From assembly GCF_008065095.1 (NCBI RefSeq), contig NZ_CP042911.1, positions 3,030,001 to 3,062,000 on the forward strand: a stretch of DNA of 32,000 bases, in the 5' to 3' direction. Positions 3,909 to 31,148 of this stretch are shown one piece after another. Source of the stretch: Gemmata obscuriglobus (lineage in GTDB: Bacteria > Planctomycetota > Planctomycetia > Gemmatales > Gemmataceae). The position numbers and the translations under genes are program-made. Positions within the stretch are counted from its first letter, which is position 1; each line of letters starts with the position of its first letter. The notes beneath the pieces were generated by a model. That model saw only the letters and a program-made list of their open reading frames with translations. It was not told the DNA's origin and searched no databases.

Positions 3909-4914
3909 TCGGGCGACGCTTCCTTCCCCTCTTCTTCTTCTCGGCGCGCATCGAGCGACGCGCCGCCATTGCTTCGACCAGCAGCGGCCCGGCTACAGTG
4001 GTCACGTCAGCCAAGACCGCGGCCCGCGCGGCGTCCTCAGCGGCTCGCGCCACTTCAGCGTGGCAAAGGCCACGGGCGGCGGCAGTAATGGCCGGCCAGC
4101 GCACTTCGGACAGTGTAAACGAACTGAGTCGATTCTCAATGAGCATCCGCACCGCACCGGTGTCAGGGAGCTCGTACTCGATGACGTCGTCGAAGCGCCG
4201 AAACAGTGCGTCGTCGAGCATGCCGATGAAGTTCGTCGCCGCCACGACGATGCTGTCCGAGTCGTCGCGCTCCATGAACTGCAGAAACGAGTTGAGCACG
4301 CGACGGATCTCGCCGACGTCGTTGGACGCGTTGCGGGTGGCGCCGATCGCGTCGAACTCGTCGAACAGGTACACGCCACGGGTCTCGGCCATCGCATCGA
4401 ACACGATGTGCAGTTTGGCGGCCGTCTCGCCCATGAACTTCGTTATCAGGGCGTGGAGTTGCACGAACATTAGCGGCAGCTGGCACTCTCCAGCAAGCGC
4501 CGCTGCGGTCATCGTTTTGCCGCACCCCGGGGGGCCGACCAAGAGAAGTTTTCGCCTCGGGGCCAGGCCGTGCGAGCGCAACCGCTCCCGCTGGCGCTGT
4601 TGATGGACGATGTCTTGGAGCTGCTGCTGGATGCGGCCGGGCAGCACCATGTCACTGAGCCGCGTGTTCGGGTACGAAGCGCTTACCAGGCCTGCGAGCT
4701 CTCCCGAAGGGCGCGCGATCGGGACCGCCCGGGGCGTACCCGCAGCCGCTTGCCGCCGGCTCTCTTCGACGAGCCCCCGTAACTCTTCGGCTAGGCGTGG
4801 GTTACCGTGCTTCGCGTTGTGGGCTGCGATCTGAAGCGTAACGGCCCGGAACTGCTCATCGTTACGAGCAGAATGACTTCGAATCAGGGCTTTGAGCTGC
4901 TCAGCGGTCGCCAC
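3901..4914 (-). CDS. ietA: Classic-clade AAA ATPase (IetA-like)
   Basis: Walker A LLLVGPPGCGKT, Walker B VYLFDEFDAIG, and an AAA second-region-of-homology-like ATNFIGMLDDALFRRF. GTG start at 4914 with AAGGAA 8 nt upstream. Translationally coupled to the S8 peptidase gene. Confidence 0.85.
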   Translation of the reverse strand: MATAEQLKALIRSHSARNDEQFRAVTLQIAAHNAKHGNPRLAEELRGLVEESRRQAAAGTPRAVPIARPSGELAGLVSASYPNTRLSDMVLPGRIQQQLQDIVHQQRQRERLRSHGLAPRRKLLLVGPPGCGKTMTAAALAGECQLPLMFVQLHALITKFMGETAAKLHIVFDAMAETRGVYLFDEFDAIGATRNASNDVGEIRRVLNSFLQFMERDDSDSIVVAATNFIGMLDDALFRRFDDVIEYELPDTGAVRMLIENRLSSFTLSEVRWPAITAAARGLCHAEVARAAEDAARAAVLADVTTVAGPLLVEAMAARRSMRAEKKKRGRKRRPNE

Positions 4915-9054: not shown

Positions 9055-9672
9055 TCAAGCGCCTCTGCCGAGCTTCTTTCGAAGCGCTTGCAGCAGAGCG
9101 TTTTTGATCTCTAGCGGGTACGCACGAGCCGTCGGAGTTCCCCACCTTCCCCGCTTCGGAAGCGAATGAGGGTCGAGCTCACCTCTCACCTCGTGCGCGA
9201 GCAGCAGCAGCGCATGAATCAATTCGTTGGCCTTCGTGTCGCGCTGCCCGCTCCCGCTCCGGATCAGATCGAGCAACTCCTCGGACATGCGGAGCGCCTC
9301 GGGCGACATGTTGATCTCGCGCCGGGGGCCGGTGTGCCGCGGGGGCCGAGACTCGACAAGGGGTGGCTGCTCTGCCGCCGCCTGAGAAACGACCGGTGGA
9401 GGTGGAAGCAGTTCCCCCACTTTGTGCGCGTCGGCATTCGCCGAAATCGTTGAAGGGGTGAATGCGGGTACCGAACCGATTGGCGGGGGCTCGCTGAAAA
9501 CCTTTGGCTTCAGGATCACAGGTGCGGCACGACTCGGGGCGGCCGGCTCCCCTACCCGCTTCGGCGCCACCGGACTCGGCCCCACTTCCGCCAAGTAGTC
9601 GCCGAGGTCGGTTATCGGGGCCACATCCAAGGTGAACGTGTCAGAGAGGCCGGGCCGGTACTTGTTAGCCAT
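9055..9672 (-). CDS. ParA partner: Pro/Ala-rich protein with a C-terminal ribbon-helix-helix-like segment (candidate centromere-binding protein)
   Basis: ATG at 9672 overlaps the ParA stop by 8 nt (ATGGCTAA). The C-terminus REINMSPEALRMSEELLDLIRSGSG..KANELIHALLLLAHE has a strand-helix-helix pattern like ParG/omega/CopG. Confidence 0.6.
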   Translation of the reverse strand: MANKYRPGLSDTFTLDVAPITDLGDYLAEVGPSPVAPKRVGEPAAPSRAAPVILKPKVFSEPPPIGSVPAFTPSTISANADAHKVGELLPPPPVVSQAAAEQPPLVESRPPRHTGPRREINMSPEALRMSEELLDLIRSGSGQRDTKANELIHALLLLAHEVRGELDPHSLPKRGRWGTPTARAYPLEIKNALLQALRKKLGRGA

Positions 9673-10621
9673 TGACTGTCTCCACATCCTCCAAGCCGGA
9701 GTCGATCACCTGCTCGACGAGTTCGGTACCCGGGAACGGGTTCAGCGTTGCGCCGAACGCGCCCTTGGCGCCACGGTTGATCATCTCCTTGACGAGCGCC
9801 GCACAGTTGGCCGCCTGCTCCTTCGCATCCGGGTGTTCGAAAATCGTGATGCCCCGCTCCGTCGATTCCCGGAAGCGCACCGAGCGACCGATGGTTGTTG
9901 CGAACACGAGCGCCGGAGTGAACCGCTTACATAGGGCCACATGAATCTCTTTATCAAGGATTGCCTTACGGTCGTAGTTTCCGAGCAGCACCCCGGCGAG
10001 ACTAAGGCCCGGGTTGTACGATTTTCGAATCTTCTCGACGGTCCTCGTGATCACCTGTAGCGCCTTCAGATCGTACCCGCTCGGGAACGTCGGGATCACG
10101 CACCAGTCGGCGGCGACGAGGGCCGAGGTCATCAGGAACCCGAGGTTCGGGGGCGTGTCGATGAGGACCACGTCGAACCGGCCCCGTAGCGAGTCGAGCG
10201 ACGCCCGCAGTCGGAACCGGTGCTCGTGGCGCAGCTCCTCCATGCTATCTTCGCTGATGCCGTTGTGAACCAGGAGCCCGAACACCTCTCGCTCCAAACG
10301 GATTTCGACGGACGAGAGCGCGCGGTGGCCCGGCACGACGGAGATGAGGCCGCCGAACCGGTCCTCCGGTGTGACCGCGATTTGGGCCGCCGGAACCTTC
10401 GACAGGTACGCGTCGGCAAGCGTGTACCGCCGCTGCCGGATCATCGCATCGGGATCGACGCCCAAATTGCCGGTGGAATCACACTGCGGGTCGGTGTCGA
10501 CCACGCACACAGAGTAACCAGACGCCGCAAACGCTGCGGCGGTAGAAACGAGAGAGCTCGTTTTCCCGCACCCCCCTTTCTGGTTCGCAAACACAATGAC
10601 CTGAGTCTCTCGAAATTTCAT
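9665..10621 (-). CDS. parA: ParA/Soj-family partition ATPase
   Basis: Deviant Walker A VFANQKGGCGKTS, then VCVVDTDPQ, and VLIDTPPNLG. Confidence 0.9.
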   Translation of the reverse strand: MKFRETQVIVFANQKGGCGKTSSLVSTAAAFAASGYSVCVVDTDPQCDSTGNLGVDPDAMIRQRRYTLADAYLSKVPAAQIAVTPEDRFGGLISVVPGHRALSSVEIRLEREVFGLLVHNGISEDSMEELRHEHRFRLRASLDSLRGRFDVVLIDTPPNLGFLMTSALVAADWCVIPTFPSGYDLKALQVITRTVEKIRKSYNPGLSLAGVLLGNYDRKAILDKEIHVALCKRFTPALVFATTIGRSVRFRESTERGITIFEHPDAKEQAANCAALVKEMINRGAKGAFGATLNPFPGTELVEQVIDSGLEDVETVNG

Positions 10622-11860: not shown

Positions 11861-11916
11861 TCTGTTCTTTTAAACATGTATAAAAATACAATAACTCGTG
11901 GTGGTCTTTTTTTAAG
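11861..11916. promoter_or_regulatory. AT-rich stretch (candidate DNA-unwinding element / rep promoter)
   Basis: TCTGTTCTTTTAAACATGTATAAAAATACAATAACTC...TCTTTTTTTAAGG is by eye the most AT-rich segment of the window. It sits between the iterons and rep. Confidence 0.5.
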
Positions 11917-11934
11917 GTGAGATTCAGGAGGAAC

Positions 11935-13506: not shown

Positions 13507-14190
13507 TTAAACGACAGCGCTGCGGGCTGGCTCGCTAGTTGGTTCGGAGTCCGTCAGGCAGCACGCGCCGGGTGTGCTGAGGAGGCCGCTCAGGGCCTGC
13601 CGCACACGATGAAACCGTTGGCGAGCAGCCTCAGAGGTGATTCCTAGCATCTCCGCGATCGCTTTGGGCCTCAAGCCTTTCAGGTGCAACTGCACCAGTT
13701 CCTGGTCGCGCGGCTGCAACCGCCGGAGCGCAAGGCGGAGCCTAGCAACACATCCCTGAGCCTCGCCTTCACCGTCGAAATCCTCACCATGTTTTTGATG
13801 GTCGTTGTCTGGCGAAGACGTCGCGAGAACATCTTTCAAGTCGGCTTCTCGCTGAAGGCGTTGTCGCTCGAGACGAACCCATTTAAGGGTTTGGTTACGG
13901 GCGACGGCGCGGAAATAAGACGCGCAACTGGTTGCCCCGTGTCGGTAGTTGCTACTGGCCTCGATGGCCTTGATGAAGATTGTCTGCAAGGCGTCTTCCG
14001 CATCCTGCGCGAACCCGGCACGAGCCATAACACTGAACACGGTCCCGGCAATCTCGCGGCCCAACCACCTGGCAGCGGCATCGGCATCAGCCTTGGCGTC
14101 GTTGGTACCGAGGCCGACCTTCTGAGCCAGGGACGCGAGGAGCGCGGTGAGGTCCATCGGTCCAGAAATCTGATCTGCACAGACCGTCAT
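13507..14190 (-). CDS. ECF-type sigma-70 family RNA polymerase sigma factor
   Basis: Region 2-like DAEDALQTIFIKA...YFRAVARNQTLKWVR. Region 4-like LQPRDQELVQLHLKGLRPKAIAEMLGITSEAARQRFHRVRQAL. ATG 14190 is preceded by GGAAGGAGA. The upstream extension to 14355 is unlikely. Confidence 0.8.
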   Translation of the reverse strand: MTVCADQISGPMDLTALLASLAQKVGLGTNDAKADADAAARWLGREIAGTVFSVMARAGFAQDAEDALQTIFIKAIEASSNYRHGATSCASYFRAVARNQTLKWVRLERQRLQREADLKDVLATSSPDNDHQKHGEDFDGEGEAQGCVARLRLALRRLQPRDQELVQLHLKGLRPKAIAEMLGITSEAARQRFHRVRQALSGLLSTPGACCLTDSEPTSEPARSAVV

Positions 14191-14491
14191 GATGTTCTCC
14201 TTCCGAGCTTCGAGAAATCGGGGCACGAAGGAAGTAAACTGAATGCCCGGCCGGACGGTGTTGCGCGCGTGCAGGTAGGCTCTCTGCGGGCGGCAAGGAG
14301 AGATTCTGGTTCGGATGATAAAGCCACGGACCGTCATGCGAGGTGATCGACACACGTGTTCTGTTGGAGCAGCAGTAAGTAGGCCGCGCTCATGAAACGT
14401 GGCTACTGGTTTACCGGGTTACCCATCGACAACCTCTTTCAGGCTCTTCTAGGCGCAGTTGACTGATCATCTGGCGGGTGCGGTCAATTTT

Positions 14492-14514
14492 CCAATCTCG
14501 ATAATCGAGATTGG
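14492..14514. promoter_or_regulatory. Perfect 23-bp palindrome CCAATCTCGAT-A-ATCGAGATTGG in the divergent sigma / vWA-operon control region
   Basis: 11+1+11 inverted repeat verified base by base. It is located between the divergent genes at 14190 (-) and 14730 (+). Confidence 0.45.
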
Positions 14515-14729
14515 TTTGGGCGCAGCATTGGCTGCATAACACCCGTTGTTCGGATTTTCCGACTCAATATTTCCTGCCCCGGTTGCCAACTCGTCGCCGC
14601 CGAGCAGCGCACATTTTTTCTGTCTCGCCCGTCACGAATTGAGCTCTTTCGGGAACTATTACATGTCGGCCGGCTGCTGATAATCGCGGCCAGCCGACGC
14701 GAGCATCTCACCAACTCAGGAGCGATTTC

Positions 14730-15590
14730 GTGGCTGAAGCAGAAGACACAATTTCGGACGAGATCCTGGCTCCCGCGCCGAAGGCCGAGGCCGAAATCGC
14801 CAAGCGCGGCCGAGGGCGGCCGCCCGGCAGCAAGAACAAAACGAAGGAGCTGCCGACCGAGCCCCCAAAATCGCCCGCACCGCAGACCATCGAGAATACT
14901 CCGGAGGACGCAGCCGTCTCACGGGCGATGCGCGATGCCTTAGAGAAGCTCGACTTCGAGTCCATGGGCAGCGCGGACCGGTGGCTGATCTTGCTGGTGC
15001 GGGACACGAGCCCGAGTGAGCAGCCGCACGAGAAGGAGTTCCATGAAGGGGCCAACGCAATCGGCCCAGTGCTCGCCGCAGACCGGCTCGCCGCAAACCT
15101 CGTTGATGTGGCGCTGTGCTACGGTGCTGAAGATTTCAAGGTCATCGACTGCCAGCACGCCAAGAATTTCGTGATGCCGCAGCACGTGGAGTATGGCCGT
15201 GGCACAGCGGGGGCGCCGTGGTTCCGTGGTATCACACGCGTGTGCAAGGACTACCGCGAGCACCTGGATGACCTGGGGGTTGCCGTCGGTGGCACCTTCG
15301 TTGTCGTGGCCTCGGACTTCTTGCTTGGAGACGATTTCGTCAGTGCCCTACGCGAGTTCCAGGAACTCCAGCACGCGGACCCGAAGCTGGTCGTGATCCC
15401 AGCCGGGTTCGGGAACTGGGTGCCACAGGTCGCCGAGCAGGTCTCGGTTCGCATTAAGCCAGTGGATCTGAACTCGTTCCGGATTTTTGACTTCCTGAAG
15501 ATCGTCGCCACTTCGATGCGCGAGCTCAGCTGCTCGCGGCCCGAAGACCGGCAGTCCGTCATTGATAAGCTCAACGACCTCAACGGGTGA
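14730..15590 (+). CDS. AT-hook + von Willebrand factor A (vWA)-like protein
   Basis: GTG start with AGGAG 7 nt upstream. AT-hook KRGRGRPPGSKNK. vWA-like order of elements: WLILLVRDTSPSE (DxSxS MIDAS), GRGTAG (MIDAS Thr), TFVVVASDFLLGDD (S/T-D strand), KLVVIPAGFG. Confidence 0.6.
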   Translation: MAEAEDTISDEILAPAPKAEAEIAKRGRGRPPGSKNKTKELPTEPPKSPAPQTIENTPEDAAVSRAMRDALEKLDFESMGSADRWLILLVRDTSPSEQPHEKEFHEGANAIGPVLAADRLAANLVDVALCYGAEDFKVIDCQHAKNFVMPQHVEYGRGTAGAPWFRGITRVCKDYREHLDDLGVAVGGTFVVVASDFLLGDDFVSALREFQELQHADPKLVVIPAGFGNWVPQVAEQVSVRIKPVDLNSFRIFDFLKIVATSMRELSCSRPEDRQSVIDKLNDLNG

Positions 15591-15597
15591 TTCCGCC

Positions 15598-16809
15598 ATG
15601 GCCGACCTCGTGGTCTGGTCTCCCATCAACCAGTGCACCGTCCGCCTCACTCCGGCCGGGGTGAGCGGCGGGCAGACCGAACTGTTCTGGTTCAAAGACG
15701 ACCCCGCTCGCTGCGCGGGGGTGCCCGTAGGCGGGAGTTGGGCCCCGTCATATTGGGCCAAGATCGAAGCACTCATTGCCCTGGCCGACCCGAGCGTTGA
15801 GGCAGCGTTCCCGGACGAGTTGCTGCTCGACCCACGGGACCGCAAGACTCCGCTCGGCTTCGGGATGAAGAAGGCCTCGGGCATCCCGCACACGCAGATC
15901 GTGATTCCGGCCGAGCGTGCCGCACAAGGGCTCAACTGGGGGCCACGCGAGGTACGCGATGTGGCCCTGCAGTTCGCGCGGCTGTTCGCCCGTTTCGAAC
16001 GACTGGGGATCACTCAGAACGACTCACACGGGGGCAATTACCTCGTCGACTGGCCCCGGTTTGCCAATCGCCCGACGGTCTTCCGGGTCGACGCGCTTGC
16101 GTTCGGGTTTCACTGGAGCGGCACCTATTTCGGGTGTGATGCAGCGGTGTTTGAGTTCCTGCCCCCAGAGCTTCACTCCAGCGATTTATCGACCGTTGAG
16201 TTTACGCGCGATGTCGACCGCTACAGCTTAGCGTGCCTGCTGTTCCCGTTACTCACGGGCGGGTCGTACCCGTGGAACTTCGGACGCGGCAAGGGTACGG
16301 CGGCCGAGCGGGTCGCGCGTAAAGAATTCGCGATGTTCACCAACCCGCGCGGCACCAAAGTGCCCCCGAGTGTTGAGACCGCGTTCAACACTCTGCCGGC
16401 CGAGGTGATCGTGTTGTTCGAGCGGGCGTTCCTCGGCGACCCAGCCGTAAGGCCTGCGCCGCGCGAGTGGTTGCATGCGCTGAAGCTAATCGACACGCGA
16501 TGGCGCCCCACGCTGCCTCGCCTCAAGACCGGTCGGTTGAAGGGTCTTGGAAGGGCCATCGCTCAGGCCATGTGGCCGGCCTGTGCGGCAGTTCGAGCGC
16601 ACCGCTGGATGCTGCTCGCGGTGACGTTTACGGTCCTTGCCGCCGCCGGCCCGCCCAAAGCTTTGTTTGCGCCAAGATCGCCGGGAGAACCGGCGCTCCC
16701 AGCGTCTCAAGCCGGTACGCAGGGGACAGACAGCGGCCAAGCAGCAGAAGAACCGACGGCGCCGACGCGCAGGCCCAAAAACACCGGCTCGTGGCAGAAC
16801 CTCAGGTAA
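15598..16809 (+). CDS. Divergent Ser/Thr protein-kinase-like protein with a C-terminal transmembrane helix and Pro/Ala-rich tail
   Basis: Gly-loop-like AGVSGGQTELFWF. Catalytic-loop-like ITQNDSHGGNYLV (D-x4-N spacing). VDALAFG at the DFG position and FLPPELH at the APE position. DRYSLACLLFPLLTGGSYPW, then RPAPREWLHAL. TM segment WMLLAVTFTVLAAAG. The ATG lies 8 nt after the vWA gene stop. Confidence 0.65.
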   Translation: MADLVVWSPINQCTVRLTPAGVSGGQTELFWFKDDPARCAGVPVGGSWAPSYWAKIEALIALADPSVEAAFPDELLLDPRDRKTPLGFGMKKASGIPHTQIVIPAERAAQGLNWGPREVRDVALQFARLFARFERLGITQNDSHGGNYLVDWPRFANRPTVFRVDALAFGFHWSGTYFGCDAAVFEFLPPELHSSDLSTVEFTRDVDRYSLACLLFPLLTGGSYPWNFGRGKGTAAERVARKEFAMFTNPRGTKVPPSVETAFNTLPAEVIVLFERAFLGDPAVRPAPREWLHALKLIDTRWRPTLPRLKTGRLKGLGRAIAQAMWPACAAVRAHRWMLLAVTFTVLAAAGPPKALFAPRSPGEPALPASQAGTQGTDSGQAAEEPTAPTRRPKNTGSWQNLR

Positions 16810-16823
16810 CAGCGGAGGCAGTC

Positions 16824-18566
16824 ATGGGTTTCGCCATGCACGGGCGCAACGGGCACCGGTCCGCTGGCGCTATGGATCTGTACGAGATCCCTGAGCAGAC
16901 GGCGCTCGGACTCGGCGACAAAGCGATGCTGTACCGCAACGGTCGGTTAGTGGGTTATGTCGACCACGCGGGCGTGCTCCGACTCGGCCGGGGGCAGAAC
17001 CTGGCGGGCGTGCAGCTTCGCCGTCCGCACCCGCGCTTGAAAGAGGGTGAGGGGATGTCTTTCACGGTCCCCTGGACCGTGACCGCCGCGATGAAGGAAC
17101 GCGGCCTTCTTAACGACCCGCACACAGCGTTCTCGTACTTGGAACGTAACGCGATCCGGGCGATGCGCGAACAGAACTGGTACGCCTACGGCCGCACGAC
17201 CGAGTTCCGCAAAGTCAACGTCAACGGCCAGCCCAAGGTGCAACGGGTCACCCGGAAGGTGAAGGTTGACCTGTACCACTTGGTCTATCGCGGCTTTCGC
17301 ACCCGTGCCGGCGAGGTGTCACCTCAGATTAGCGCGTACGCGCTCAACATGGGGCAGGCGGCCAACGGCAAGCACTACGCACTCGACTGGAAGGGGCTCT
17401 ACAACGCGCAGCAACAGGTCAAGGCCGTCTGGCACCTGGGGCTCGCCTACGACCTCGGGCAAAAGGCCGGCATCAAGTGCGTCCCAAAGGGGCACTCGAT
17501 GCGTGCCCTGGGTATCGACCAGAAGGTGAAGCCCAAGCGCACGCGCCAGGTGCGTAAGCGACTCAAGCAGATGAAGGCTCGGGGGCCTCGAGCGCGCGAC
17601 CGTGCGGCCCGCGAGACCCGGGCGCCCAAGCCGGACGTTTCGTGGGGTCAGGCCGTCAAGAACACGGTCTATCAACTCCGCAGCGCGGTCGAACGCAAAA
17701 TTACTCGGCTCTCCAAATCGCGCCAGCGGCGGTTCGCACGGCAGTGCGTGCGCGCGGCGGTCCGGTTCTGCAGTGACGGCAACCTGCGGTTCAGCACCCG
17801 CGACGTGAAGGCGGCAGCAGCCCACATGGCACTGCCCCACGTGCGGCCGGGCGTGTTCGTGCGTGCGTTCCGTCAGGAGATGGCCCGCATAGAGCACTTG
17901 GGCGTGACCAAGGTGCGCGACCTCGGCGGCGGGCAGGCGGAGTTTACTGGGGCCGTGCAGGCTCAGTCGGAGCGCCGGGCCGTCGAGACGCTCGCGGCCG
18001 GCACCTACCGAACGCACGGCAAGCTCTCCTCCAAACAGGTGGCCCGGGCACTGGCGGGCCGTGGGCACGACGCCCGTGAGTTGCGGCGGGTGCAGTCACT
18101 TGTAGGCTCGGGCGGGGTCACGATCGATTCCACCGGCCTGACCAAGAGTCACGAAACGCGGGCGGCAGTGATCGGGGCCTACGAAGGCAATGGACGCAAG
18201 GTCTACCGCATCGACCGCACCGGCAGCGACGGGTCTTTCACTCCCAAGGAATTCGTGGCGGCGGCCACGCGCACCCCGCACATGGTGGCGCTCTGGCGTG
18301 GGCTGCGCACGCGCGGGTCGCTCATGGAAAAGCTCGGCGTGGCCGAGCACATCCGCCGCGCGAGTCAAGGTGGGCCGAAGAAAGGATCGCTCGTAATTGC
18401 CGATGTTCGCGTGACCGACTCCGCAGAGATCGCCCGGATCACCAAGCTGGTGAGCAAGGCAAAGGGGCACTTGCTGCTGGTAGGCGAGGGGGCCAAGGAA
18501 CTGGCTCCTCTGGTGGAACAACAGCGCCAGCAGCTCAACCAACAGAGAAAGGGGCCACGGCGATGA
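16824..18566 (+). CDS. TrwC/MobF-relaxase-related protein with substituted catalytic motifs (function uncertain)
   Basis: ATG 16824 after GGAGG. The segment YHLVYRGFRTRAGEVSPQISAYALNMGQAANGKHYALDWKGLY...LGLAYDL parallels the TrwC motif-III region (H.TSR..DPQLHTH..v.N....GK...L) but has SAY in place of HTH. The C-terminus LVIADVRVTDSAEIARITKLVSKAKGHLLLVGEG resembles a degenerate helicase Walker-B/GD block. There is also a long basic Lys/Arg-rich linker. Confidence 0.4.
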   Translation: MGFAMHGRNGHRSAGAMDLYEIPEQTALGLGDKAMLYRNGRLVGYVDHAGVLRLGRGQNLAGVQLRRPHPRLKEGEGMSFTVPWTVTAAMKERGLLNDPHTAFSYLERNAIRAMREQNWYAYGRTTEFRKVNVNGQPKVQRVTRKVKVDLYHLVYRGFRTRAGEVSPQISAYALNMGQAANGKHYALDWKGLYNAQQQVKAVWHLGLAYDLGQKAGIKCVPKGHSMRALGIDQKVKPKRTRQVRKRLKQMKARGPRARDRAARETRAPKPDVSWGQAVKNTVYQLRSAVERKITRLSKSRQRRFARQCVRAAVRFCSDGNLRFSTRDVKAAAAHMALPHVRPGVFVRAFRQEMARIEHLGVTKVRDLGGGQAEFTGAVQAQSERRAVETLAAGTYRTHGKLSSKQVARALAGRGHDARELRRVQSLVGSGGVTIDSTGLTKSHETRAAVIGAYEGNGRKVYRIDRTGSDGSFTPKEFVAAATRTPHMVALWRGLRTRGSLMEKLGVAEHIRRASQGGPKKGSLVIADVRVTDSAEIARITKLVSKAKGHLLLVGEGAKELAPLVEQQRQQLNQQRKGPRR

Positions 18567-18943
18567 ATGCCTTCTTCAGCGGATACCTGCGCATCCTGGG
18601 TGCGTTCCACGCCGGGGTCGCTATGTACGTGGTGCCGCACGGAAACTCCCATGCGTTTCTGATCGCACTGATAACGGGTGCGGTGGTCTTCTGGCGCAAC
18701 TGCGACCTGGACGAGAACGAAAGCCTGCGCGTGCAGTTCGTGCTCGCGTATCTCGTGCCCCAGGGCCTTATTGCCCTCCTGTTTTTGTTCTTCGCCGCGC
18801 CGTCGTCGTGGGAAGCGGCCCTCTCGCTTGTACTCGGAATGCATGACGAAGCTTGGACCCGCACACCGGGCATGGTTTACCTGCTCGCCTCCGCGTACGG
18901 CTCCTACCGCGCGCACGTCGCACAACAGAGTCAATCATTTTAA
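18563..18943 (+). CDS. Small polytopic membrane protein
   Basis: ATGA overlap with the preceding gene. Several hydrophobic helices (e.g. AFLIALITGAVVFW, GLIALLFLFFAAP). Confidence 0.6.
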   Translation: MNAFFSGYLRILGAFHAGVAMYVVPHGNSHAFLIALITGAVVFWRNCDLDENESLRVQFVLAYLVPQGLIALLFLFFAAPSSWEAALSLVLGMHDEAWTRTPGMVYLLASAYGSYRAHVAQQSQSF

Positions 18944-18972: not shown

Positions 18973-19143
18973 GTGGACACCGAGAGACTTGTGGTGATCG
19001 CTTTGTTTTTGTGGCTGACCTTCTCGCGCTGCGAGCGGTTCATGCACTGGCGTGGCCCGACTGTGGCCTCGCGCGACGAGGCCCAGAACGAGCACCGTTG
19101 GCAGTTCCGCAGGCCAAAAAAACGGGGGGACGATGACGACTAG
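18973..19143 (+). CDS. Small single-TM protein (56 aa), not in the supplied ORF track
   Basis: Hand translation from GTG 18973: VDTERLVVIALFLWLTFSRCERFMHWRGPTVASRDEAQNEHRWQFRRPKKRGDDDD*. Codon third positions are strongly GC-rich. The stop overlaps the T4CP ATG region by 11 nt. Confidence 0.4.
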   Translation: MDTERLVVIALFLWLTFSRCERFMHWRGPTVASRDEAQNEHRWQFRRPKKRGDDDD

Positions 19144-20497
19144 CGACCAGGTCTGGTGCGGCATCTGGCTAGACATGGAGGTGCTGCGGCATGGAATCCG
19201 TTTCATCGGCTCGCCCGGCAGCGGCAAGAGCGTCATGCTTAAAGCTCTCCGCGCAACGCTTGCCACTATAATCAAAAATAGACCAGATTATGACATCCTT
19301 GCCGTTGACTTCGATGGGGGCAAGCGCGATCTGTATGAGATCTTTCGCTTATTTCCCCAGTGGGCCCCGGTCTTCGACTTGAACCCGTTTCTGTGGGGCG
19401 ACCGCTACGACTTCATGGGCGACCTTGAGGACCCGCGCGACATCGCCCAGATGGCGGCCAACATCATTGAGGTGCGGGAGAAGGACAGCCAGCCGTACTT
19501 CCCTCAGGCCGCACAGCATGTGTTCCGAGCCGCGATGCTGCGTCACTGGTTGGTGACGCCGGGCCGCGCAACAACTCGTGACGTGTTCCTGTCGGGGATG
19601 TCGGCGAACAACATCCGCCGGGTCATCGGGAGCCATCCGCAGAGCCGCCACGCTTTACCGCTGGTGAACCGAACCGAGTCAGGTCTTTCGGTGATCTCGA
19701 CGCTGATGAACGAGGTGGGCAAATACGAGTACGTGGCGTCTCTGTGGGACTCAAACGACCGAGGGCGAACCGTGACAATCCGCTCGTTCCTCAAGCAGCG
19801 GTTCGCGCTCCTGTCACTGCCCTACGATGACAAGTCGGTTGCCACACTCGCTGCGGTCGTCCGCTACCTGCTCGTAGTGCTCCAGCAACGGGCCCTGAGT
19901 ACCGTTGTGCGCAACCGGTATCTCCTGTTGCTCCTCGACGAATTGGCCCTCCTCCCAGGGGGGATCAACCTGGACCTCACGCTCGTGAAAGGCAGAGAGA
20001 CGGGTATTTGCCCGTTGTTCGCGTACCAGAGCCATTCCCACTGCCGGACCGTTCACGGCAAGGAAAAATTCGACGCGATGACTGGGTTGATGAAGACCAC
20101 GATCGTGCTCAACCAGCCGTCGCGGGAAGACGCCGAGTATTGCGCGAAGGTCTTCTCGGACCAACAGGGCTTCATGAAGTTCAACTCCGCCCAGGGGGGC
20201 AAGAACCCGAGCACGGGTTGGTCCGAGCAGCTCACTACGGTGGAGAACGTGACGGCGGCCATGATCCAGTCGCTCCCCGTGCCGACCCCGGCGACCCCGT
20301 TCATCGAAGGGTTCATGGTGACGCTCCCGTTTCGCCCGTTCCGGTTCCGGGTCCGCATCCCGGACCTGCTCAAGGCGCTGGTTCCTACAGTCGCGCCCCA
20401 GGCCCCGCCGGCCCCGCGCGACCCGAAAGACTTCTTGCTTCGGCCCTGGTCCGAGGACGACTACAAGCGCCTAGGCTTGCCGCGCCCCCGGAACTGA
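19133..20497 (+). CDS. Type IV secretion coupling protein (TraD/TraG/VirD4-like ATPase), soluble domain only
   Basis: Walker A IRFIGSPGSGKSV, Walker B YLLLLLDELALLPG, and the T4CP-like block LFAYQSHSHCRTVHGKEKFDAMTGLMKTTIVLNQPSREDAEYCAKVF. ATG 19133 is more likely than the upstream 19052 start. There is no N-terminal TM segment. Confidence 0.7.
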   Translation: MTTSDQVWCGIWLDMEVLRHGIRFIGSPGSGKSVMLKALRATLATIIKNRPDYDILAVDFDGGKRDLYEIFRLFPQWAPVFDLNPFLWGDRYDFMGDLEDPRDIAQMAANIIEVREKDSQPYFPQAAQHVFRAAMLRHWLVTPGRATTRDVFLSGMSANNIRRVIGSHPQSRHALPLVNRTESGLSVISTLMNEVGKYEYVASLWDSNDRGRTVTIRSFLKQRFALLSLPYDDKSVATLAAVVRYLLVVLQQRALSTVVRNRYLLLLLDELALLPGGINLDLTLVKGRETGICPLFAYQSHSHCRTVHGKEKFDAMTGLMKTTIVLNQPSREDAEYCAKVFSDQQGFMKFNSAQGGKNPSTGWSEQLTTVENVTAAMIQSLPVPTPATPFIEGFMVTLPFRPFRFRVRIPDLLKALVPTVAPQAPPAPRDPKDFLLRPWSEDDYKRLGLPRPRN

Positions 20498-21761: not shown

Positions 21762-22364
21762 ATGCCTAATGCCTCGTCCGACGATTCGCTGCCAAGTGGC
21801 TTTGTCGTTGACCGACTCGACGTCCTGGTGAATCGTGGGTCGAAATTCGGCTGCATCTACGCCGACGTGCCATGGCGTTACGACCGCGCACCACGCGGTG
21901 CAACGCCCTATCGAACGATGAGCCTTGAGGAGATCGCTGCGCTGCCGGTGCCGGCACTGACGCTGCCGAACGCGCATTTACACTTCTGGGCGACGCACTC
22001 GTTCCTCTTTGAGGCCCGAGACATCCTGACCGCTTGGGGCTTTGAGTACCGAGGGGTTTTCGTATGGGCTAAGCCCCAGCTCGGAACCGGCTACTATTGG
22101 AGAAGCTCGGTTGAGTTTTTGGTACTTGGAGTGCGCGGCAAATGCACGTTCCGCGATCGTTCGATCCGAAACTGGCTAATCCATGACCGGGCTGACCACA
22201 GCCGCAAACCGGAAGCCGTTCGGCGCCTGATTCACAGGGTGAGTCCGGGACCGTACCTTGAGCTCTTCGGGAGGAGAGCTATTTCCGGATGGACGATTTT
22301 TGGGGATCAGGTCGATTGCGCCAATTTGTTCGACGATGACATCGTTATTCTTAAGGAGGAGTGA
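21762..22364 (+). CDS. MT-A70-family N6-adenine DNA methyltransferase (orphan)
   Basis: CIYADVPWRY (DPPW-type motif), YRTMSLEEIAALPV, LHFWATHSFL, AWGFEY...VWAK, HSRKPEAVRRLI, PYLELFGRR..SGWTIFGDQ. Confidence 0.85.
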   Translation: MPNASSDDSLPSGFVVDRLDVLVNRGSKFGCIYADVPWRYDRAPRGATPYRTMSLEEIAALPVPALTLPNAHLHFWATHSFLFEARDILTAWGFEYRGVFVWAKPQLGTGYYWRSSVEFLVLGVRGKCTFRDRSIRNWLIHDRADHSRKPEAVRRLIHRVSPGPYLELFGRRAISGWTIFGDQVDCANLFDDDIVILKEE

Positions 22365-23548: not shown

Positions 23549-24259
23549 ATGGCTCGTTTTAGATCGGACATTGCGATCGATTGGATAAACGAAGGATATC
23601 GCCTTTTAGGCGATGCTAATATTAATGATTGTGAATATCAAAATGTAATTATTAGGCAACGAATTTTTAACTCAATAACCAATGCATATTGGCGGGCGGT
23701 GGTACGTTATGCTGGAACGGTCGAGCCGCCACTGCAAAGAGACAACGAGTTGCCCGAGCAGGCACTACTGCGCCTGCTCGGGCAAAACTCAGGAACGATC
23801 AGCCGATGGCTGAACGGAAGAACGCCGCCTCAAGCTGACAAGGTGCTCGGCAGCCTGGTCATCGTTCTCGTGAAAGAAATTGAAGACATTGACCTCCCGC
23901 CGATTCGTGAGATCGCCTGGCAAGCTGTCAGCCAGACAATGAATGTAATTCGTCAAGAGGATTTAGGTCGCGGTCCTCGAACGCTTTCAAGGCAGGAGTT
24001 CGCCTGCGTCCGATGGCTCGCGCGCCACGTGCAGTCGAGGGCATATGCGGAGGGACATTCACGGAATACTCAAAATCCCGAGTTAGAAGCGCAGGTTCTT
24101 ACCGACGTTTTCCATAAAGTCAGGCTTCGATTTCCAGAAGTCGCGGCCGGGCTCGTCCCGGTCGCTATCTCTGAATGGCTCCGACCCTACCTGTTATTTC
24201 GGGTCGGCCTACTTGGCGGCTGGAGAAGCCTCGAGGAGCACCCCGATGTCACGGCTTGA
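23549..24259 (+). CDS. XRE-like HTH protein with unassigned N- and C-terminal regions
   Basis: LPEQALLRLLGQNSGTISRWLNGRTPP resembles an XRE-type HTH. The 5' ~150 nt of the gene are conspicuously AT-rich. Confidence 0.55.
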   Translation: MARFRSDIAIDWINEGYRLLGDANINDCEYQNVIIRQRIFNSITNAYWRAVVRYAGTVEPPLQRDNELPEQALLRLLGQNSGTISRWLNGRTPPQADKVLGSLVIVLVKEIEDIDLPPIREIAWQAVSQTMNVIRQEDLGRGPRTLSRQEFACVRWLARHVQSRAYAEGHSRNTQNPELEAQVLTDVFHKVRLRFPEVAAGLVPVAISEWLRPYLLFRVGLLGGWRSLEEHPDVTA

Positions 24260-25070: not shown

Positions 25071-27725
25071 ATGAAATTGTCTCGGTCGAAGGTGCTGCTG
25101 ACCCTGATGGTTCTCGGCACGACAGGCTTTGGGGTCGGTGGAGTGTACTGGCTGCTGGCCAAACCTCGCCACGAGAAGGCTACCGAGCAAACGTTCCGCG
25201 ATACTGAACGTGACGGATCAGCTACACCTGTCACGCCCAATTCCGAGTCTCCTTCTGCCGGCACGCCGAAGGCGGCCAGTACCGAGAGAAGACTGTTCCC
25301 GTTCCGCCGGGTAGTGGCCATCGTCATCGGGATTAACAATTACCCGCACCTCACGGGCACAGCTAACTTGGCGTGTGCCGAATCCGACGCTCGATCGGTT
25401 GGTGACCTGCTCGACCGCCATTACGGCTACCAGATCGTCCCACTCCTCGGGGCACAGGCTACCAAAGCGGCCATTGAGACAGCCATCCAGAAAAATGGCC
25501 GAGAGCTGGGCGAACGCGATGCACTGGTCGTTTACTTCGCCGGACATGGTCAGGTGATTGAGTTGGCGGGACATGGTGAGGCGGGGTACCTCATCCCGGC
25601 AGACGCTCGCCTCGATCTGAAAGACGCTAGAGATGCGTCTCGCTGGGCGGAGCAGGCGATTGACATGCAGCAGTTGACCGCCCAAATGGAAGAGGCGACC
25701 GCCCAGCACACGGTCTTCATTGCTGACGCCTGTTGCAGCGGGTACATGACAGCACGCGGTTCTCTAGAGCGCTGGGACCTGAAGAACTTCTTGACTGGCA
25801 AATCACGCACGGTGATTACCGCGACCAACCGCCGTCAACTCGCGCGGGAGGACGCAACCGGTAAGCACGGGTATTTCACCGCCGCTCTACTCAACGAGTT
25901 AAGCAAGACCGACGCGGCCAGCGTGCTCGACATCTACTACCCGCTATCGCGGGTCGTCCCCGAGAAAGTTAACGGCAACATGCAGCCGCAGTTTGCGCAG
26001 TTCGGCGAGGGAACCGGCATGTTCGTTTTCATCCCGATGTCGATTCCGAAGGAAGAAATCGAAAGCGATCTGAACGCCGAGAACGCTACCTTACTCGCCA
26101 ACCGTAACGCGGGCGTCGCCGGGGTAATTAATCGCGCCGCCAACCAGGCCAAGCAGAAAACCACCTACGCGGAGTTCCTCGCCGCCCTCGCCGCAACCGA
26201 ATACCGTTTTGCCGTGAACGCGGAAGAGCAGCGCCAGGGCTGGGAACAAAAGTTCGCCCGCTACCATCGGAACGCACTGATGGGTGATGTGTGGGCGATG
26301 GCGGCATTGTGCTGCTGTTACGAGAAGGGTCTCGGAGTCGAGAAGGACTTGGCTCAAGTTGTCTATTGGGCACGGCAAGCAAATCGGGTGCGGCAGTCAC
26401 CGGGCGTGGGAAGCTATCTGATAGGGTACTGCTACAACAAAGGGTACATTACGCCGAATTCGGAAGCCCGTTCCAAAGAGCAAGCAAAGCGTCTTTTCGC
26501 AGAGAGTGCGATGAAAGGGTTCGGGCCGGCCCAGTTGGCGCACGCCGGAAATCTTTACGGCGACGGTACGCAGCTCTCCCGGGATCAGCGGCAAGCAGTA
26601 TACGATCTACTTGAAAAAGCGGTCGCCGAGGGTGTACTCCTTGCGAACGTTGAGCTTGGGCTTTGCTTGCTCGAGGACAACCTCCGGTCGGCGGACGCCA
26701 AACTGGAGGCCCGCGCCATCCAGCTGCTGGAGTCGGCTGCGAGCAAAGGGTTCTCCCGAGCTCACTTTTTTTTGTCTCAACTCTACAGTGGCCAGTCTGT
26801 GCGTGGCAAAGCTCTTCTCACTGCGAGAGATTTCAAGAAGGCGAGATCCCACCTCTTACAGGCATGTGAAGCGGGCCACGCGACGGCTCTCCTTGGACTT
26901 GGTACGCTTTATTTTACCGGTGATGCCAATTGGGGCATAGCCAAAGATCTCCCTCGCGCATTCGAATTTTTCGAGCAGGCGGGGGAGCTCGGCGAAGCGA
27001 CTGCTCTATGCCTATCTGCTCTAATGCTGGCCGATGGGTCGGGTGGCATTAAAGACCCAGAGAAAGCGAAAGCAAGACTCGAGCAAGCTGTCAAATACGG
27101 GGCTCCGGAATCGGATTTCATGCTGGGCAAATGGTACCAAACCGGCAAAGTGTACCAACGGAGTGATGAGCAAGCCCTCGCTGCCTTTCGCCGTGGGGCC
27201 GACAAAGGCCACGCTGGGAGCTGTTTTCACGCCGGCCTGATGTACCTCAAGGGTGAAGGGTTCAAGGCCAAATGGCAGAGTGAAGGAGGCTTCCATACTG
27301 AATGGCATATGGGCCTCCATTATTTTGTTGAGTCGTCGCGAAGCGGCCAACCAGATGCGGCCCGCCAAACAACCATAAATAAATGGATGCTAGATTTCAC
27401 CCGCTATCTCGAAGGCGGTGCATTTAGCAAAGAAATCGACCAAGCACTTAATACCAACCCATCGAGCGTGGACGCTTTCGGCCCTAAATCTCCCCCCGGT
27501 GGGAACAAGCAAGGCTCACGCGGTCAGCGTCAGGAAATAGTGATTCACAGCGGAATTTCATTTTCGTCACTTCGTGGCAATTTGATCGTCGAGGCCACAC
27601 AGGTTGCAAAGCAGTGGAGGACCGAGAATCCCGACAGCTTTAAGTACTTCTGCAGCAAGTGGGGAGTCGATCCGGACTCATTGGAAGTGAAGGAAAAAGC
27701 TGCCCCCAAACAAAAGACGCCATAG
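25071..27725 (+). CDS. N-terminally membrane-anchored caspase-like (peptidase C14, orthocaspase) protein with a long Sel1-like repeat region
   Basis: TM helix VLLTLMVLGTTGFGVGGVYWLL. Caspase fold markers: VAIVIGINNY, catalytic His in VVYFAGHGQ (H159), catalytic Cys in VFIADACCSGY (C221). Multiple Sel1-type units follow (e.g. AMAALCCCYEKGLGVEKDLAQVVYWARQA; LGTLYFTGDANWGIAKDLPRAFEFFEQA; MLGKWYQTGKVYQRSDEQALAAFRRGA). Confidence 0.85.
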   Translation: MKLSRSKVLLTLMVLGTTGFGVGGVYWLLAKPRHEKATEQTFRDTERDGSATPVTPNSESPSAGTPKAASTERRLFPFRRVVAIVIGINNYPHLTGTANLACAESDARSVGDLLDRHYGYQIVPLLGAQATKAAIETAIQKNGRELGERDALVVYFAGHGQVIELAGHGEAGYLIPADARLDLKDARDASRWAEQAIDMQQLTAQMEEATAQHTVFIADACCSGYMTARGSLERWDLKNFLTGKSRTVITATNRRQLAREDATGKHGYFTAALLNELSKTDAASVLDIYYPLSRVVPEKVNGNMQPQFAQFGEGTGMFVFIPMSIPKEEIESDLNAENATLLANRNAGVAGVINRAANQAKQKTTYAEFLAALAATEYRFAVNAEEQRQGWEQKFARYHRNALMGDVWAMAALCCCYEKGLGVEKDLAQVVYWARQANRVRQSPGVGSYLIGYCYNKGYITPNSEARSKEQAKRLFAESAMKGFGPAQLAHAGNLYGDGTQLSRDQRQAVYDLLEKAVAEGVLLANVELGLCLLEDNLRSADAKLEARAIQLLESAASKGFSRAHFFLSQLYSGQSVRGKALLTARDFKKARSHLLQACEAGHATALLGLGTLYFTGDANWGIAKDLPRAFEFFEQAGELGEATALCLSALMLADGSGGIKDPEKAKARLEQAVKYGAPESDFMLGKWYQTGKVYQRSDEQALAAFRRGADKGHAGSCFHAGLMYLKGEGFKAKWQSEGGFHTEWHMGLHYFVESSRSGQPDAARQTTINKWMLDFTRYLEGGAFSKEIDQALNTNPSSVDAFGPKSPPGGNKQGSRGQRQEIVIHSGISFSSLRGNLIVEATQVAKQWRTENPDSFKYFCSKWGVDPDSLEVKEKAAPKQKTP

Positions 27726-27940: not shown

Positions 27941-28049
27941 TGACAGAAGTCCTTTCGCCGAAGCTACTTAGCTTACCTCCCGGCGTTCGGGAGCGCGGTC
28001 TCTGGATGCCGAGTTTTGCGGGAACTCCCGCAATACAAGAGGTGTCAGA

Positions 28050-29381
28050 ATGCCGCGTCCGAAGAATCCCATCCCCACGCCCCGCTGCCACAAAAACCGG
28101 GCCGTCATCGATTTCTATGATGGCGGCAAACGTCGCACCGTCACCCTCGGCCCTTGGGGTTCGCCCGAGGCCGAACGGGAATTCGCGCGAATCCTCGCCG
28201 AAGTTGCGGCCACACCGGATCGGTCCGTCGGATCCAACCCGACGGTCAACGAGGTGCTCCTCGCGTTCCTCCGCTGGGCCGACGGGTACTACCGCACCCC
28301 GGACGGAAAGCCCACCCACGAGGTCGTCGAGTTGCGGCTCTCGGCACGCCCGGTGCGCGAGCTGTACGGGCACACCCCGGCCCGCGAGTTCGGCCCCAAG
28401 GCCCTGACCGCGGTCCGACAGCAGATGATCGACGCGGGGCTCAGCCGCACCCTCATCAACCGCCGCGCCGACCGCATCAAGCGCGTGTTCAAGTGGGCCT
28501 CGTCGGAAGAACTCGTGCCGGTGGCGGTGTACCAGGCGCTTCGCACCGTCACCGGGTTGCGGCGCGGGCGGACCGAGGCCCGCGAGAGCAAGCCCGTCGG
28601 ACCCGTGGACGGCGCCACCGTCGATGCCACATTGCCTCGACTCGACGCCCACCTGCGCGCCATGATCGAGCTCCAGCGGTTCACGGGCATGCGCCCCGGC
28701 GAGGCGTGCGGGTTCCGACTCGCACAGGTGGACCGCACCGGGGAGGTGTGGTTCTACCGGCCCGAGCGGCACAAGACCGCGCACCACGGGCGTGGGCGGG
28801 TGATCCCGATCGGCCCGAAGGCCCGCGCCGCTCTGCTCGCATTCCTGCTCCGCGACGGTCCGCCGCCCGCCGGGTTCGTACCGCCCGCCCCGGGCGACGA
28901 CACCGCGCGGCTGGTGCTCGTGGACGCGTACCAGGAAGCGGGCCGGGAGCGTGACGCGGCTCTGCTCCGCGATCTCGCGCGGCCCATCGTGTTCATCGCC
29001 GGGTGTGTCGTGGACCCGGGCGCTCCGCTGTTCAGCCCCGCCGTGGCCCGCGAGGAGCGGTTCAAGGCCGCGCGGAAGAACCGTAAGAGCAAGGTGCCCC
29101 CGTCACAGCAGAATCGACGCAAGGGCGCCCCCGAGCGCGTACCGGGAGCCGAGTTCACGGTGACCGCGTACGGGCACGCGATCCGCAAGGCGGCCGCCAA
29201 GGCCGGCGTGGCCCGCTGGCACCCGAACCAGCTGCGGCACACGTTCGGGACCGAGGTGCGGCGCGTGTACGGGTTGGAGGCGGCCCAGGTGCTGCTCGGG
29301 CACTCGCGGGCCGACGTGACCCAGGTGTACGCCGAACGCAACGAGTCCCTGGCCGCGGAAATTGCCGCGAAAATCGGTTGA
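28050..29381 (+). CDS. int: Tyrosine site-specific recombinase (integrase)
   Basis: Catalytic contexts FTGMRPGEA (Arg), RHKT (Lys), HPNQLRHTFGT (His-x-x-Arg region), LLGHSRADVTQVYAE (His, Tyr). It lies ~110 nt downstream of the tRNA-Asn fragment. Confidence 0.9.
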   Translation: MPRPKNPIPTPRCHKNRAVIDFYDGGKRRTVTLGPWGSPEAEREFARILAEVAATPDRSVGSNPTVNEVLLAFLRWADGYYRTPDGKPTHEVVELRLSARPVRELYGHTPAREFGPKALTAVRQQMIDAGLSRTLINRRADRIKRVFKWASSEELVPVAVYQALRTVTGLRRGRTEARESKPVGPVDGATVDATLPRLDAHLRAMIELQRFTGMRPGEACGFRLAQVDRTGEVWFYRPERHKTAHHGRGRVIPIGPKARAALLAFLLRDGPPPAGFVPPAPGDDTARLVLVDAYQEAGRERDAALLRDLARPIVFIAGCVVDPGAPLFSPAVAREERFKAARKNRKSKVPPSQQNRRKGAPERVPGAEFTVTAYGHAIRKAAAKAGVARWHPNQLRHTFGTEVRRVYGLEAAQVLLGHSRADVTQVYAERNESLAAEIAAKIG

Positions 29382-29398
29382 ACGGCGGCCCGACCGCG

Positions 29399-29430
29399 CC
29401 CCGCCGACGTCCGGCGGGGTGTTTTCGTTT
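29399..29430 (+). terminator. Rho-independent terminator after the integrase gene
   Basis: CCCCGCCG (29399-29406) / CGGCGGGG (29412-29419) with a 5-nt loop, then TGTTTTCGTTT. Confidence 0.55.
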
Positions 29431-29937
29431 CCGTCCGCCCGCGCGGCGGTTCGCATCACTTCGAAGCAACGGGGTCCAGCGCCCGAAGGCAAGCGGTCGG
29501 TGAACCGTCGCCGGGTTCGACAGAGATGGGGCGCACGCCACTCACGCACGTTTCTGCTTCCGGATTCTCGCGGATCAGCCCTTCTGCACCGAGCTTCCGC
29601 TTCGACGGCGAGGTGCTCCGGCATCTCCGGCATCTCCGGCCCCCCCGTTCCCCGCGCCCGAACCGTCTCACCCCGATCACCCTTCGACGCGAATACAGCT
29701 TACCGCTCGTATGTGCCGGTCCCGAAACAGCGGCACGTTAGGCAGACCTGACGGGTGTGCCGGACACCTCCCGCACACCGGTTGCGCGTCAAAACCGTCC
29801 CACTCGACGTCACCGGCAGCTTTTGGTGGGCAAGTTCTCGTTGCACGTATGCACACCGCTGGCGGCACGCACTTTGGTGCGATAAACAGTACGTACGCGG
29901 TTCAAGACGTGCCGCGGCTCAACTGGATGCGACCACC

Positions 29938-30630: not shown

Positions 30631-30695
30631 ACACCGCGTGACACGGAAATGGGCGAAGATCCTTGCGTCCGGCAACACCCGACGCGAGGACCGAC

Positions 30696-31028: not shown

Positions 31029-31148
31029 ACCGCTCCCCCGCGCGGCGGGGCGGTCCCGCCGCACACCATTTCCCGGCACCACCAAAAAGCACACCGGGCC
31101 GCGGGGAGAGCTGGCGAGCGTCCCGCGACCCGGTGCGACAAACACTTC

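Follow-up and report, generated by a model that had tools for sequence, protein, structure and literature searches.

What would a von Willebrand factor A (vWA) protein and a kinase-like protein do at the head of an operon for DNA transfer? The question is raised by two adjoining genes of Gemmata obscuriglobus, here called A (GobsT_25980, 14730–15590) and B (GobsT_25990, 15598–16809). Both lie on the plus strand of a 32,000 nt chromosomal stretch of contig NZ_CP042911.1; this whole stretch is referred to as the window. Gene A encodes a protein of 286 aa with an AT-hook at its N-terminus and a TerY/YegL-like vWA domain behind it. Gene B encodes a protein of 403 aa, in which a kinase-like Hanks domain of the YegI/TerY-P type is followed by a hydrophobic anchor and a proline-rich tail.

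A preliminary description of this DNA had proposed a reduced, two-gene TerY-P-like module. The homology of A to YegL, and of B to YegI and to the kinases of TerY-P triads, backs this proposal, and a reduced and modified TerY-P/YegLKI module is well supported by these sequence comparisons. Our preferred reading goes further. With a probability of about 0.5, A and B would be a phosphatase-less TerY-P descendant, fixed in the DNA-processing operon of a mobile element, where they tether or gate the relaxosome. The host elements are a rare family of integrative, mobilisable elements of Gemmata-like planctomycetes, with an operon carrying a MOBF relaxase and a type IV coupling protein (T4CP). From the fixed place of the pair in this operon, we infer a role in the relaxosome or in transfer control.

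Proteins A and B

Profile comparisons identify A as an AT-hook joined to a TerY-like vWA domain with a metal ion-dependent adhesion site (MIDAS) that is predicted to be intact. The AT-hook (KRGRGRPPGSKNK at residues 25–37; K25–K39, KRGRGRPPGSKNKTK, at 14802–14846 on the plus strand) has an R-G-R-P core with basic residues on either side. It had already been picked out in the preliminary description, and most aligned members of the A family carry an N-terminal KRRGRPPGSKNK AT-hook as well. In one member, Pfam AT_hook reached an E-value of 0.024. The A-family profile matched only AT-hook segments in the PDB, including those of GLYR1 and FLN1. The N-terminus of A had low confidence in the structural model and is probably disordered.

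The vWA domain spans residues ~81–273 (14970–15548, plus strand). The ordered MIDAS elements DTSPS (D92, S94 and S96; 15003–15017), GRGT (T159; 15204–15206) and VVVASD (D196; 15315–15317) are present as claimed. The family alignment comprised 18 sequences with identities as low as 19%, and besides the start methionine only D92, S96, T159, D196 and G228 were invariant. As these were the sole invariant residues at 19% identity, the assignment goes far beyond the chance spotting of motifs.

The A family is rare: an exhaustive HMMER search of 1.84 billion proteins with an A-core profile returned 19 representatives at E ≤ 1e-3. The most distant members, P0026 and P0027, exceeded the PF00092 VWA threshold (32.1 and 28.9 bits vs 23.8). 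A profile of 16 members, with neither of these two Pfam-reaching sequences among them, matched Escherichia coli YegL in hhalign with a probability of 95.7% and an E-value of 9.3e-9 over 188 columns. Over the different A-family profiles, E-values ranged from 9e-9 to 3e-16 for YegL and from 1.9e-5 to 7e-16 for a Rhizobium triad vWA protein (188–202 columns covered). The value of 1.9e-5 was that of a profile built from Gemmata-type sequences only. The order of strands and helices in the model of A (b1-a1-b2-b3-a-a-b4-a-b5-a) would fit a vWA fold.

Protein B is assigned to the Hanks kinase fold of the YegI type; it retains the catalytic Asp and Asn and a DFG-equivalent Asp. The kinase-like domain covers residues ~16–300 (15643–16497, plus strand), as delimited by hhalign to PknB and YegI. 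The B-family profile aligned over the whole kinase domain of Mycobacterium tuberculosis PknB with an E-value of 2.5e-10. The E-values were 1.2e-15 against E. coli YegI and 3.8e-17 against the Rhizobium triad kinase. When B alone was compared with the PLSDB plasmids by tblastn, the best matches were the kinases of VWA-PP2C-kinase triads (Sphingomonas panacis, E = 7e-19; Sphingobium RAC03, E = 2e-18). Generic models recognised B poorly: Pfam Pkinase gave an E-value of 0.12, below threshold and in the C-lobe only, and NCBIfam and PADLOC gave only sub-threshold or weak generic kinase matches. PADLOC 2.0.0 also fails to call E. coli YegL or YegI as TerY-P, and its silence on the pair is therefore uninformative.

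The kinase landmarks named in the preliminary description could be placed in alignments with PknB and YegI. They are the G-loop (G21–Q26, VSGGQTEL, including G24/G25), the catalytic loop (D142–N147, QNDSHGGN; 16021–16038), the DFG-equivalent Asp (D165, 16090–16092, aligned with YegI D159), E191 in PPE, D207 in subdomain IX and R285 in subdomain XI. Two oddities were also borne out, namely the unusual loop NDSHGGN and the missing VAIK lysine; the beta3 position (G41–P43, 15718–15726) reads G41/V42/P43 and has no Lys. All of these lie on the plus strand.

A kinase alignment was made of 12 sequences: five planctomycete-type B proteins, one distant homologue (from locus L015, see below), five triad kinases and PknB. 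D142 (YegI D141), D165 (YegI D159, part of a DSD motif in place of DFG), E191, D207 and R285 were invariant. N147 is canonical in B, and YegI has Ser at this position. The beta3 Lys was gone in all five planctomycete-type proteins, which have AGVP, AALP or ALVP vs AKIY or VKIY in the triad kinases; P43 is invariant within the planctomycete clade. No conserved acidic residue was found in the alphaC helix of B in this alignment. The more distant kinases of loci L015 and L024 retain the beta3 Lys (V-K-V). Among the sequences compared, the loss of this Lys is thus specific to the planctomycete clade.

YegI no longer autophosphorylates when it carries either K39D or D141N, and its preferred metal ion is Mn2+ (10.1101/819920). 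Since B has lost this Lys, which YegI needs, but keeps its remaining catalytic residues, it would be either a non-canonical kinase or a pseudokinase. One hhalign register against PknB placed AFG at the DFG position, which would have meant that the DFG Asp was lost. It was rejected in favour of D165, because D165 aligns with YegI D159, is invariant in 12 of 12 sequences including PknB (MAFFT) and follows the predicted beta8 strand. K55, invariant and in the predicted alphaC, was considered as a relocated catalytic Lys of the WNK kind and was rejected as well: it is no evident substitute because it is also conserved in YegI-type kinases that have the beta3 Lys. Nor was a conserved Lys found to have moved into the G-loop of B.

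B had been described as ending in a transmembrane helix. A modestly hydrophobic segment does occur at residues ~337–357 (16606–16668, plus strand), preceded by a basic RAHR, but it is not terminal, as a proline-rich tail of ~50 aa lies beyond it. The segment is a probable single membrane anchor. Its Kyte–Doolittle score over 19 residues was 1.54 in B, and the corresponding C-terminal segments scored 1.68 and 2.17 in the homologues of loci L010 and L012. The tail carries the motif P-x-R-R/K-P-x-N-x-x-x-W (PxRRPKNxxxW in B; 16762–16794, plus strand), in which R391, P393, N395 and W399 are invariant among the close homologues. Residues 300–403 had no Pfam match and contain only the hydrophobic segment and this tail.

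The background given in the preliminary description, a TerY-P system of vWA protein, PP2C phosphatase and Ser/Thr kinase with reported anti-phage activity, agrees with PMC11090510, where TerY-P modules are described as vWA/PP2C/kinase sets that are reported to be anti-phage, with kinases bearing DNA-binding C-terminal domains. The TerY-P triads of Anantharaman et al. 2012 and the anti-phage TerY-P of Gao et al. 2020 are cited here as summarised there (PMC11090510). The phosphatase is the missing member. The queries were six triad middle-gene products (five annotated as PP2C and an unannotated one from Calothrix), and tblastn with them found no PP2C homologue in the window, with nothing better than an E-value of 0.2. 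Over the window and seven related loci together, nothing fell below E = 0.01 and only short noise was seen. A Pfam scan of the large open reading frames (ORFs) of the window gave no PP2C match either.

Gene order and related loci

The order vWA gene, kinase-like gene, relaxase, one or two small ORFs and T4CP was found in every related locus with enough sequence. These are the window, L001/L009 and L008 from Gemmata sp. IIL30, L004/L005 from a metagenome-assembled genome, L002/L003 from an ENA metagenome contig, L010 and L015 from Logan contigs, L012 from GCA_046350095.1, and L024. On the short contigs L011 and L014, the N-terminus of a YegI-like kinase directly follows the vWA gene. Co-occurrence of the pair elsewhere had been named as a check, and the two genes are syntenic in all related loci with enough flank. 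Gene order is retained among lineages at only ~20–25% identity. The canonical triads, including E. coli yegL-pphC-yegI, lie in unrelated and variable neighbourhoods and not beside relaxases. A linkage that stays fixed at ~20–25% identity is the chief argument that the pair acts with the DNA-processing genes and is not free cargo.

Two distant loci differ in detail. The relaxase of L015 and L024 is of another build (~960–990 aa, TrwC plus helicase, vs ~580 aa), an additional small gene lies between kinase and relaxase, and in L015 an ArdC-like gene lies upstream of the module. In both loci the AT-hook ends a separate protein of ~130 aa, encoded directly upstream of the vWA gene (L015 5374–5766, PRKRGRPRKN; L024 8574–8969, KRKPGRPRKA; both at the C-terminus). 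The association of AT-hook and vWA domain is therefore old. The presence of both in one protein points to a trait of the planctomycete clade, which would have arisen by gene fusion there or by fission in the distant relatives.

In one of the loci of Gemmata sp. IIL30 (L008, scaffold 5, 9131–9993), the A homologue is frameshifted and split into P0007 (222 aa) and a second ORF; the copy is a pseudogene, or else the assembly is in error here. The B homologue beside it is intact and 91% identical.

Relatives were few. A word-indexed homologue search gave four to five close relatives per protein, profile included, and metagenome scans for the pair found none. A genome scan, in which each species was represented by one genome, returned only Gemmata sp. 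IIL30, with two copies, and not G. obscuriglobus. Perhaps the species representative of G. obscuriglobus is without the element, in line with mobility; alternatively, the pattern scan may have overlooked it. Neither A nor B nor the relaxase had relatives in sequence searches of the PDB, and a full-text literature search found no description of a vWA/kinase pair in a transfer operon.

Within the window, gene A starts with GTG at 14730, with AGGAG at 14718–14722, and stops with TGA at 15588–15590. Gene B runs from ATG at 15598 to TAA at 16807–16809. The spacer between A and B is 7 nt, which is the '8 nt later' of the preliminary description in another way of counting, and the spacer between B and the relaxase gene is 14 nt. 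Judged by this spacing, translational coupling of A and B is plausible. The gene map also agrees with the pair being the head of a relaxase/T4CP operon in an integrated element, with an extracytoplasmic function (ECF) sigma gene adjoining.

The relaxase is of the MOBF/TrwC type (16824–18566, plus strand, 580 aa). NCBIfam MobF matched it with an E-value of 7e-7, below the cut-off, and its homologues bear PF08751 TrwC. It starts with ATG at 16824, with GGAGG at 16814–16818. A longer ORF of 699 aa, starting with GTG at 16467 and overlapping the final 343 nt of B in another frame, was rejected as an artefact of the ORF finder, because homologous relaxases have 571–582 aa and GGAGG-ATG is found at 16814–16826. 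The relaxase is followed by a small hydrophobic protein (18563–18943, plus strand, 126 aa), which has no Pfam match and keeps its place between relaxase and T4CP in related loci. The T4CP is of the TrwB/TraG-D type (19052–20497, plus strand; PF10412, E = 4e-23; PF12696, E = 2.7e-10).

Upstream of the pair lie the ECF-type sigma-70 family gene (13507–14355, minus strand; matches to Sigma70_r2 and r4_2), a gene for an RPA-type replication initiator and a ParA gene. A sigma gene just upstream of the pair was also found in L001, L002 and L010. It is co-directional there and divergent in the window. In L015 and L024, no sigma gene adjoins the pair; a sigma-like gene of L024 lies ~4 kb off on the other strand.

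The region between sigma gene and A (14356–14729) presumably serves as promoter or operator and may also hold the origin of transfer (oriT). No sigma-70 consensus was found in it, and a terminator/promoter scan was uninformative. It contains a perfect palindrome with arms of 11 nt (14492–14514, CCAATCTCGAT-A-ATCGAGATTGG), which could be an operator. It has no conserved counterpart upstream of A in the related loci.

Downstream of the T4CP gene, an MT-A70-family methyltransferase is encoded (21762–22364 in the window), as in every related element (L001, L002, L010 and L012). Farther from the pair are genes for a tyrosine integrase and for a protein that joins a caspase (Peptidase_C14) to Sel1 repeats. 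The caspase-Sel1 protein is a conserved passenger of the element family (window 25071–27725; L001 3516–5567; L002 2783–4783; L012 2131–4710). In the relatives it lies within a block of small genes that includes at least one second sigma-like gene, and in L004 a CHAT-TPR protein takes its place. On the minus strand at 1215–4914, the gene for an S8 subtilase of 896 aa comes immediately before that for an AAA ATPase of 336 aa, and a PIN-domain gene is close by (294–803); the subtilase and the ATPase resemble a pair of the conflict or defence type, located on the element or adjacent to it.

Two AT-rich islands stand out from the ~60% guanine–cytosine (GC) content of the window: 11861–11920 (GC 0.28) and 23611–23670 (GC 0.23). 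The first is directly upstream of the gene for the replication initiator, and the origin may be unwound there; the second is within an unannotated ORF (23549–24259). Either of them could be a target of the AT-hook. The GC content rises from 0.54–0.60 to 0.70–0.76 at the tyrosine integrase gene (28050–29381; stretch 28001–32000), which suggests the right-hand junction of element and chromosome. No tRNA gene was found in the window.

Role of the pair

A mechanism can be sketched for the preferred reading. A would bind AT-rich DNA of the element by its AT-hook, most plausibly at or near oriT, and its MIDAS metal would bind a partner (B, the T4CP or the relaxase) through an acidic or phosphorylated side chain. 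B would sit at the inner membrane as a weak, non-canonical (perhaps Mn-dependent) kinase or as a pseudokinase scaffold. Acting together, A and B could tether the relaxosome, or gate it, at the membrane and the T4CP. By analogy of position, they would stand at the place in the operon where R388 has its oriT-binding accessory protein TrwA. With no dedicated phosphatase, the switch might be reset by PP2C phosphatases of the host, or it might be structural and not catalytic. A bolder form holds that A and B are integral to a new device coupling relaxosome and membrane, in which a MIDAS- and phospho-dependent tether replaces the oriT accessory proteins; this we consider rather unlikely.

Several points weigh against the preferred reading. 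A itself had no match in Pfam, NCBIfam or PADLOC, and tblastn of A against plasmids gave nothing at E ≤ 1; its vWA assignment therefore depends on profiles and transitive links. The AlphaFold2 model of A was poor, with a pLDDT (predicted local distance difference test) score of 47 from an alignment of four sequences. The best Foldseek E-value with this model was 0.047 and not significant; the matches of highest probability (0.57–0.80, likewise not significant) were vWA domains such as ANTXR1 and CMG2. The model of B was also of low confidence (pLDDT 44, four sequences), and all of its top 50 Foldseek matches were protein kinases. Since the models are poor, Foldseek is only indicative for A, while it is consistent for B. 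The hydrophobic segment, modest in B, is weaker still in L001 and L002, and the loss of the beta3 Lys could leave B with no catalytic role at all. Upstream of A, no conserved AT-rich site, oriT or shared palindrome was common to the loci. Finally, the fixed synteny with the relaxase is no proof of a role in transfer, as cargo can be stably co-transcribed.

On a rival view, the pair is cargo of the element: a stand-alone, reduced TerY-P-like module for anti-phage defence or exclusion, merely co-transcribed with the relaxase. The AT-hook would then replace the Zn-ribbon, OB or HhH domain of the C-terminus of the canonical TerY-P kinase. The homology of the pair to TerY-P triads is consistent with this, as are the reported anti-phage activity of TerY-P-like modules and the DNA-binding C-termini of canonical kinases (PMC11090510), and other conflict-type genes are found in the window (PIN, S8 peptidase with AAA ATPase, caspase-Sel1). 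However, triads occur in variable neighbourhoods, and the pair is fixed before the relaxase over a deep divergence and with two relaxase architectures. Moreover, the pair has neither the phosphatase nor the catalytic Lys of the characterised system. Defence cargo is a possible explanation, though on balance an unlikely one.

An explanation outside the relaxosome is that the pair regulates transcription or signalling of the element together with the adjacent ECF sigma factor. The tail of B would sense an envelope signal, and A, bound to DNA, would help to regulate the transfer operon or excision. The sigma gene directly upstream in the window, L001, L002 and L010, the conserved tail motif of B, which is probably extracytoplasmic, and the perfect palindrome in the shared promoter region would all suit such a role. 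But the orientation of the sigma gene varies, L015 and L024 have no sigma gene adjoining the pair, and the palindrome is not conserved, so that we regard this explanation as improbable. A decaying remnant is very improbable. It would consist of an inactive pseudokinase and a degenerate vWA protein, drifting since the loss of the phosphatase and of no present function. The lost beta3 Lys and alphaC acidic residue, the divergence of A beyond the reach of Pfam and the frameshifted copy in L008 (P0007) could be taken as signs of decay. Against this, both ORFs are intact in all other full-length loci at 49–90% identity. The MIDAS residues, D142, D165, E191, D207, R285 and the tail motif are strictly conserved, and this conservation implies purifying selection.

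TerY-P/YegLKI modules are widespread and reported to be anti-phage, with a mechanism that is unexplained. A two-gene, DNA-hooked variant tied to a relaxase gives concrete partners (oriT DNA, relaxase and T4CP) for the interplay of MIDAS and kinase. On sequence evidence, the pair is a new and rare TerY-P variant linked to a DNA-transfer operon, and its link to transfer is plausible. If this holds, it would be the first accessory pair of vWA/kinase type for a DNA-processing operon of the MOBF kind. A planctomycete plasmidome preprint describes chromosomal MOBF relaxases and T4CPs with no complete mating-pair system, states that conjugation between members of the Planctomycetes has not been reported, and is silent on a kinase or vWA partner (10.1101/2024.01.22.576637). 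If the coupling device were real, it might help to explain how planctomycete elements with only a relaxase and a T4CP move DNA, and it would bring to light the ancestral role in DNA processing that has long been predicted for TerY-P modules. B, with its clade-specific loss of the Lys and its other catalytic residues kept, is a natural case of evolution from kinase to pseudokinase or non-canonical kinase.

Comparison with known systems

TrwA, the first gene product of the trwA-trwB-trwC operon of R388, is an oriT-binding ribbon-helix-helix protein. Like this MOBF accessory protein, A is a small DNA-binding protein (as its AT-hook suggests) encoded by the first gene of a relaxase/T4CP operon, and it would be expected likewise to bind oriT and form a bridge to the T4CP. 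The two have no kinship in sequence or fold (ribbon-helix-helix vs AT-hook and vWA), and the analogy is one of position only. We know of no kinase-like partner in MOBF relaxosome accessory systems.

Lysine-less kinases and pseudokinases of the WNK type resemble B in that they, too, lack the beta3 Lys but keep the catalytic Asp and the metal-binding residues. B differs from WNK kinases in having no conserved Lys relocated to the G-loop.

By sequence, E. coli YegL and YegI are the closest characterised relatives of A and B. The vWA part of A can be aligned with YegL from end to end, the C-terminal helix motif included. YegI is a divergent Hanks kinase like B, whose domain aligns with YegI residues 18–303. 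YegI is a membrane protein and B appears to be one too, and the genes are tightly spaced or overlapping in yegL-pphC-yegI as in the pair. There are also differences. The E. coli operon has the PP2C phosphatase PphC/YegK, whereas none is encoded between or near A and B. YegL (219 aa) has no AT-hook, and A has one in its N-terminal extension. YegI has the essential K39 and lacks the motif VI Asn; in B it is the reverse, with the Lys missing and the Asn kept. YegI has 646 aa and two membrane passes, while B has 403 aa and one hydrophobic segment. The yegLKI genes are chromosomal beside the mdtABCD region, and the A-B pair lies within a relaxase/T4CP operon.

With the TerY-P triads, the pair shares a TerY-like vWA protein and, from the same subfamily of kinases, a dedicated Ser/Thr kinase, as well as ties to DNA-binding modules and mobile DNA. 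The triads consist of three genes and the pair of two. In the triads, the Zn-ribbon, OB or HhH domain is on the C-terminus of the kinase, whereas the AT-hook of the pair is on or next to the vWA protein. B appears to have a membrane anchor where triad kinases carry their nucleic-acid-binding domain, and it has lost the catalytic Lys. Unlike the TerY-P triads, the pair is fixed upstream of a MOBF relaxase.

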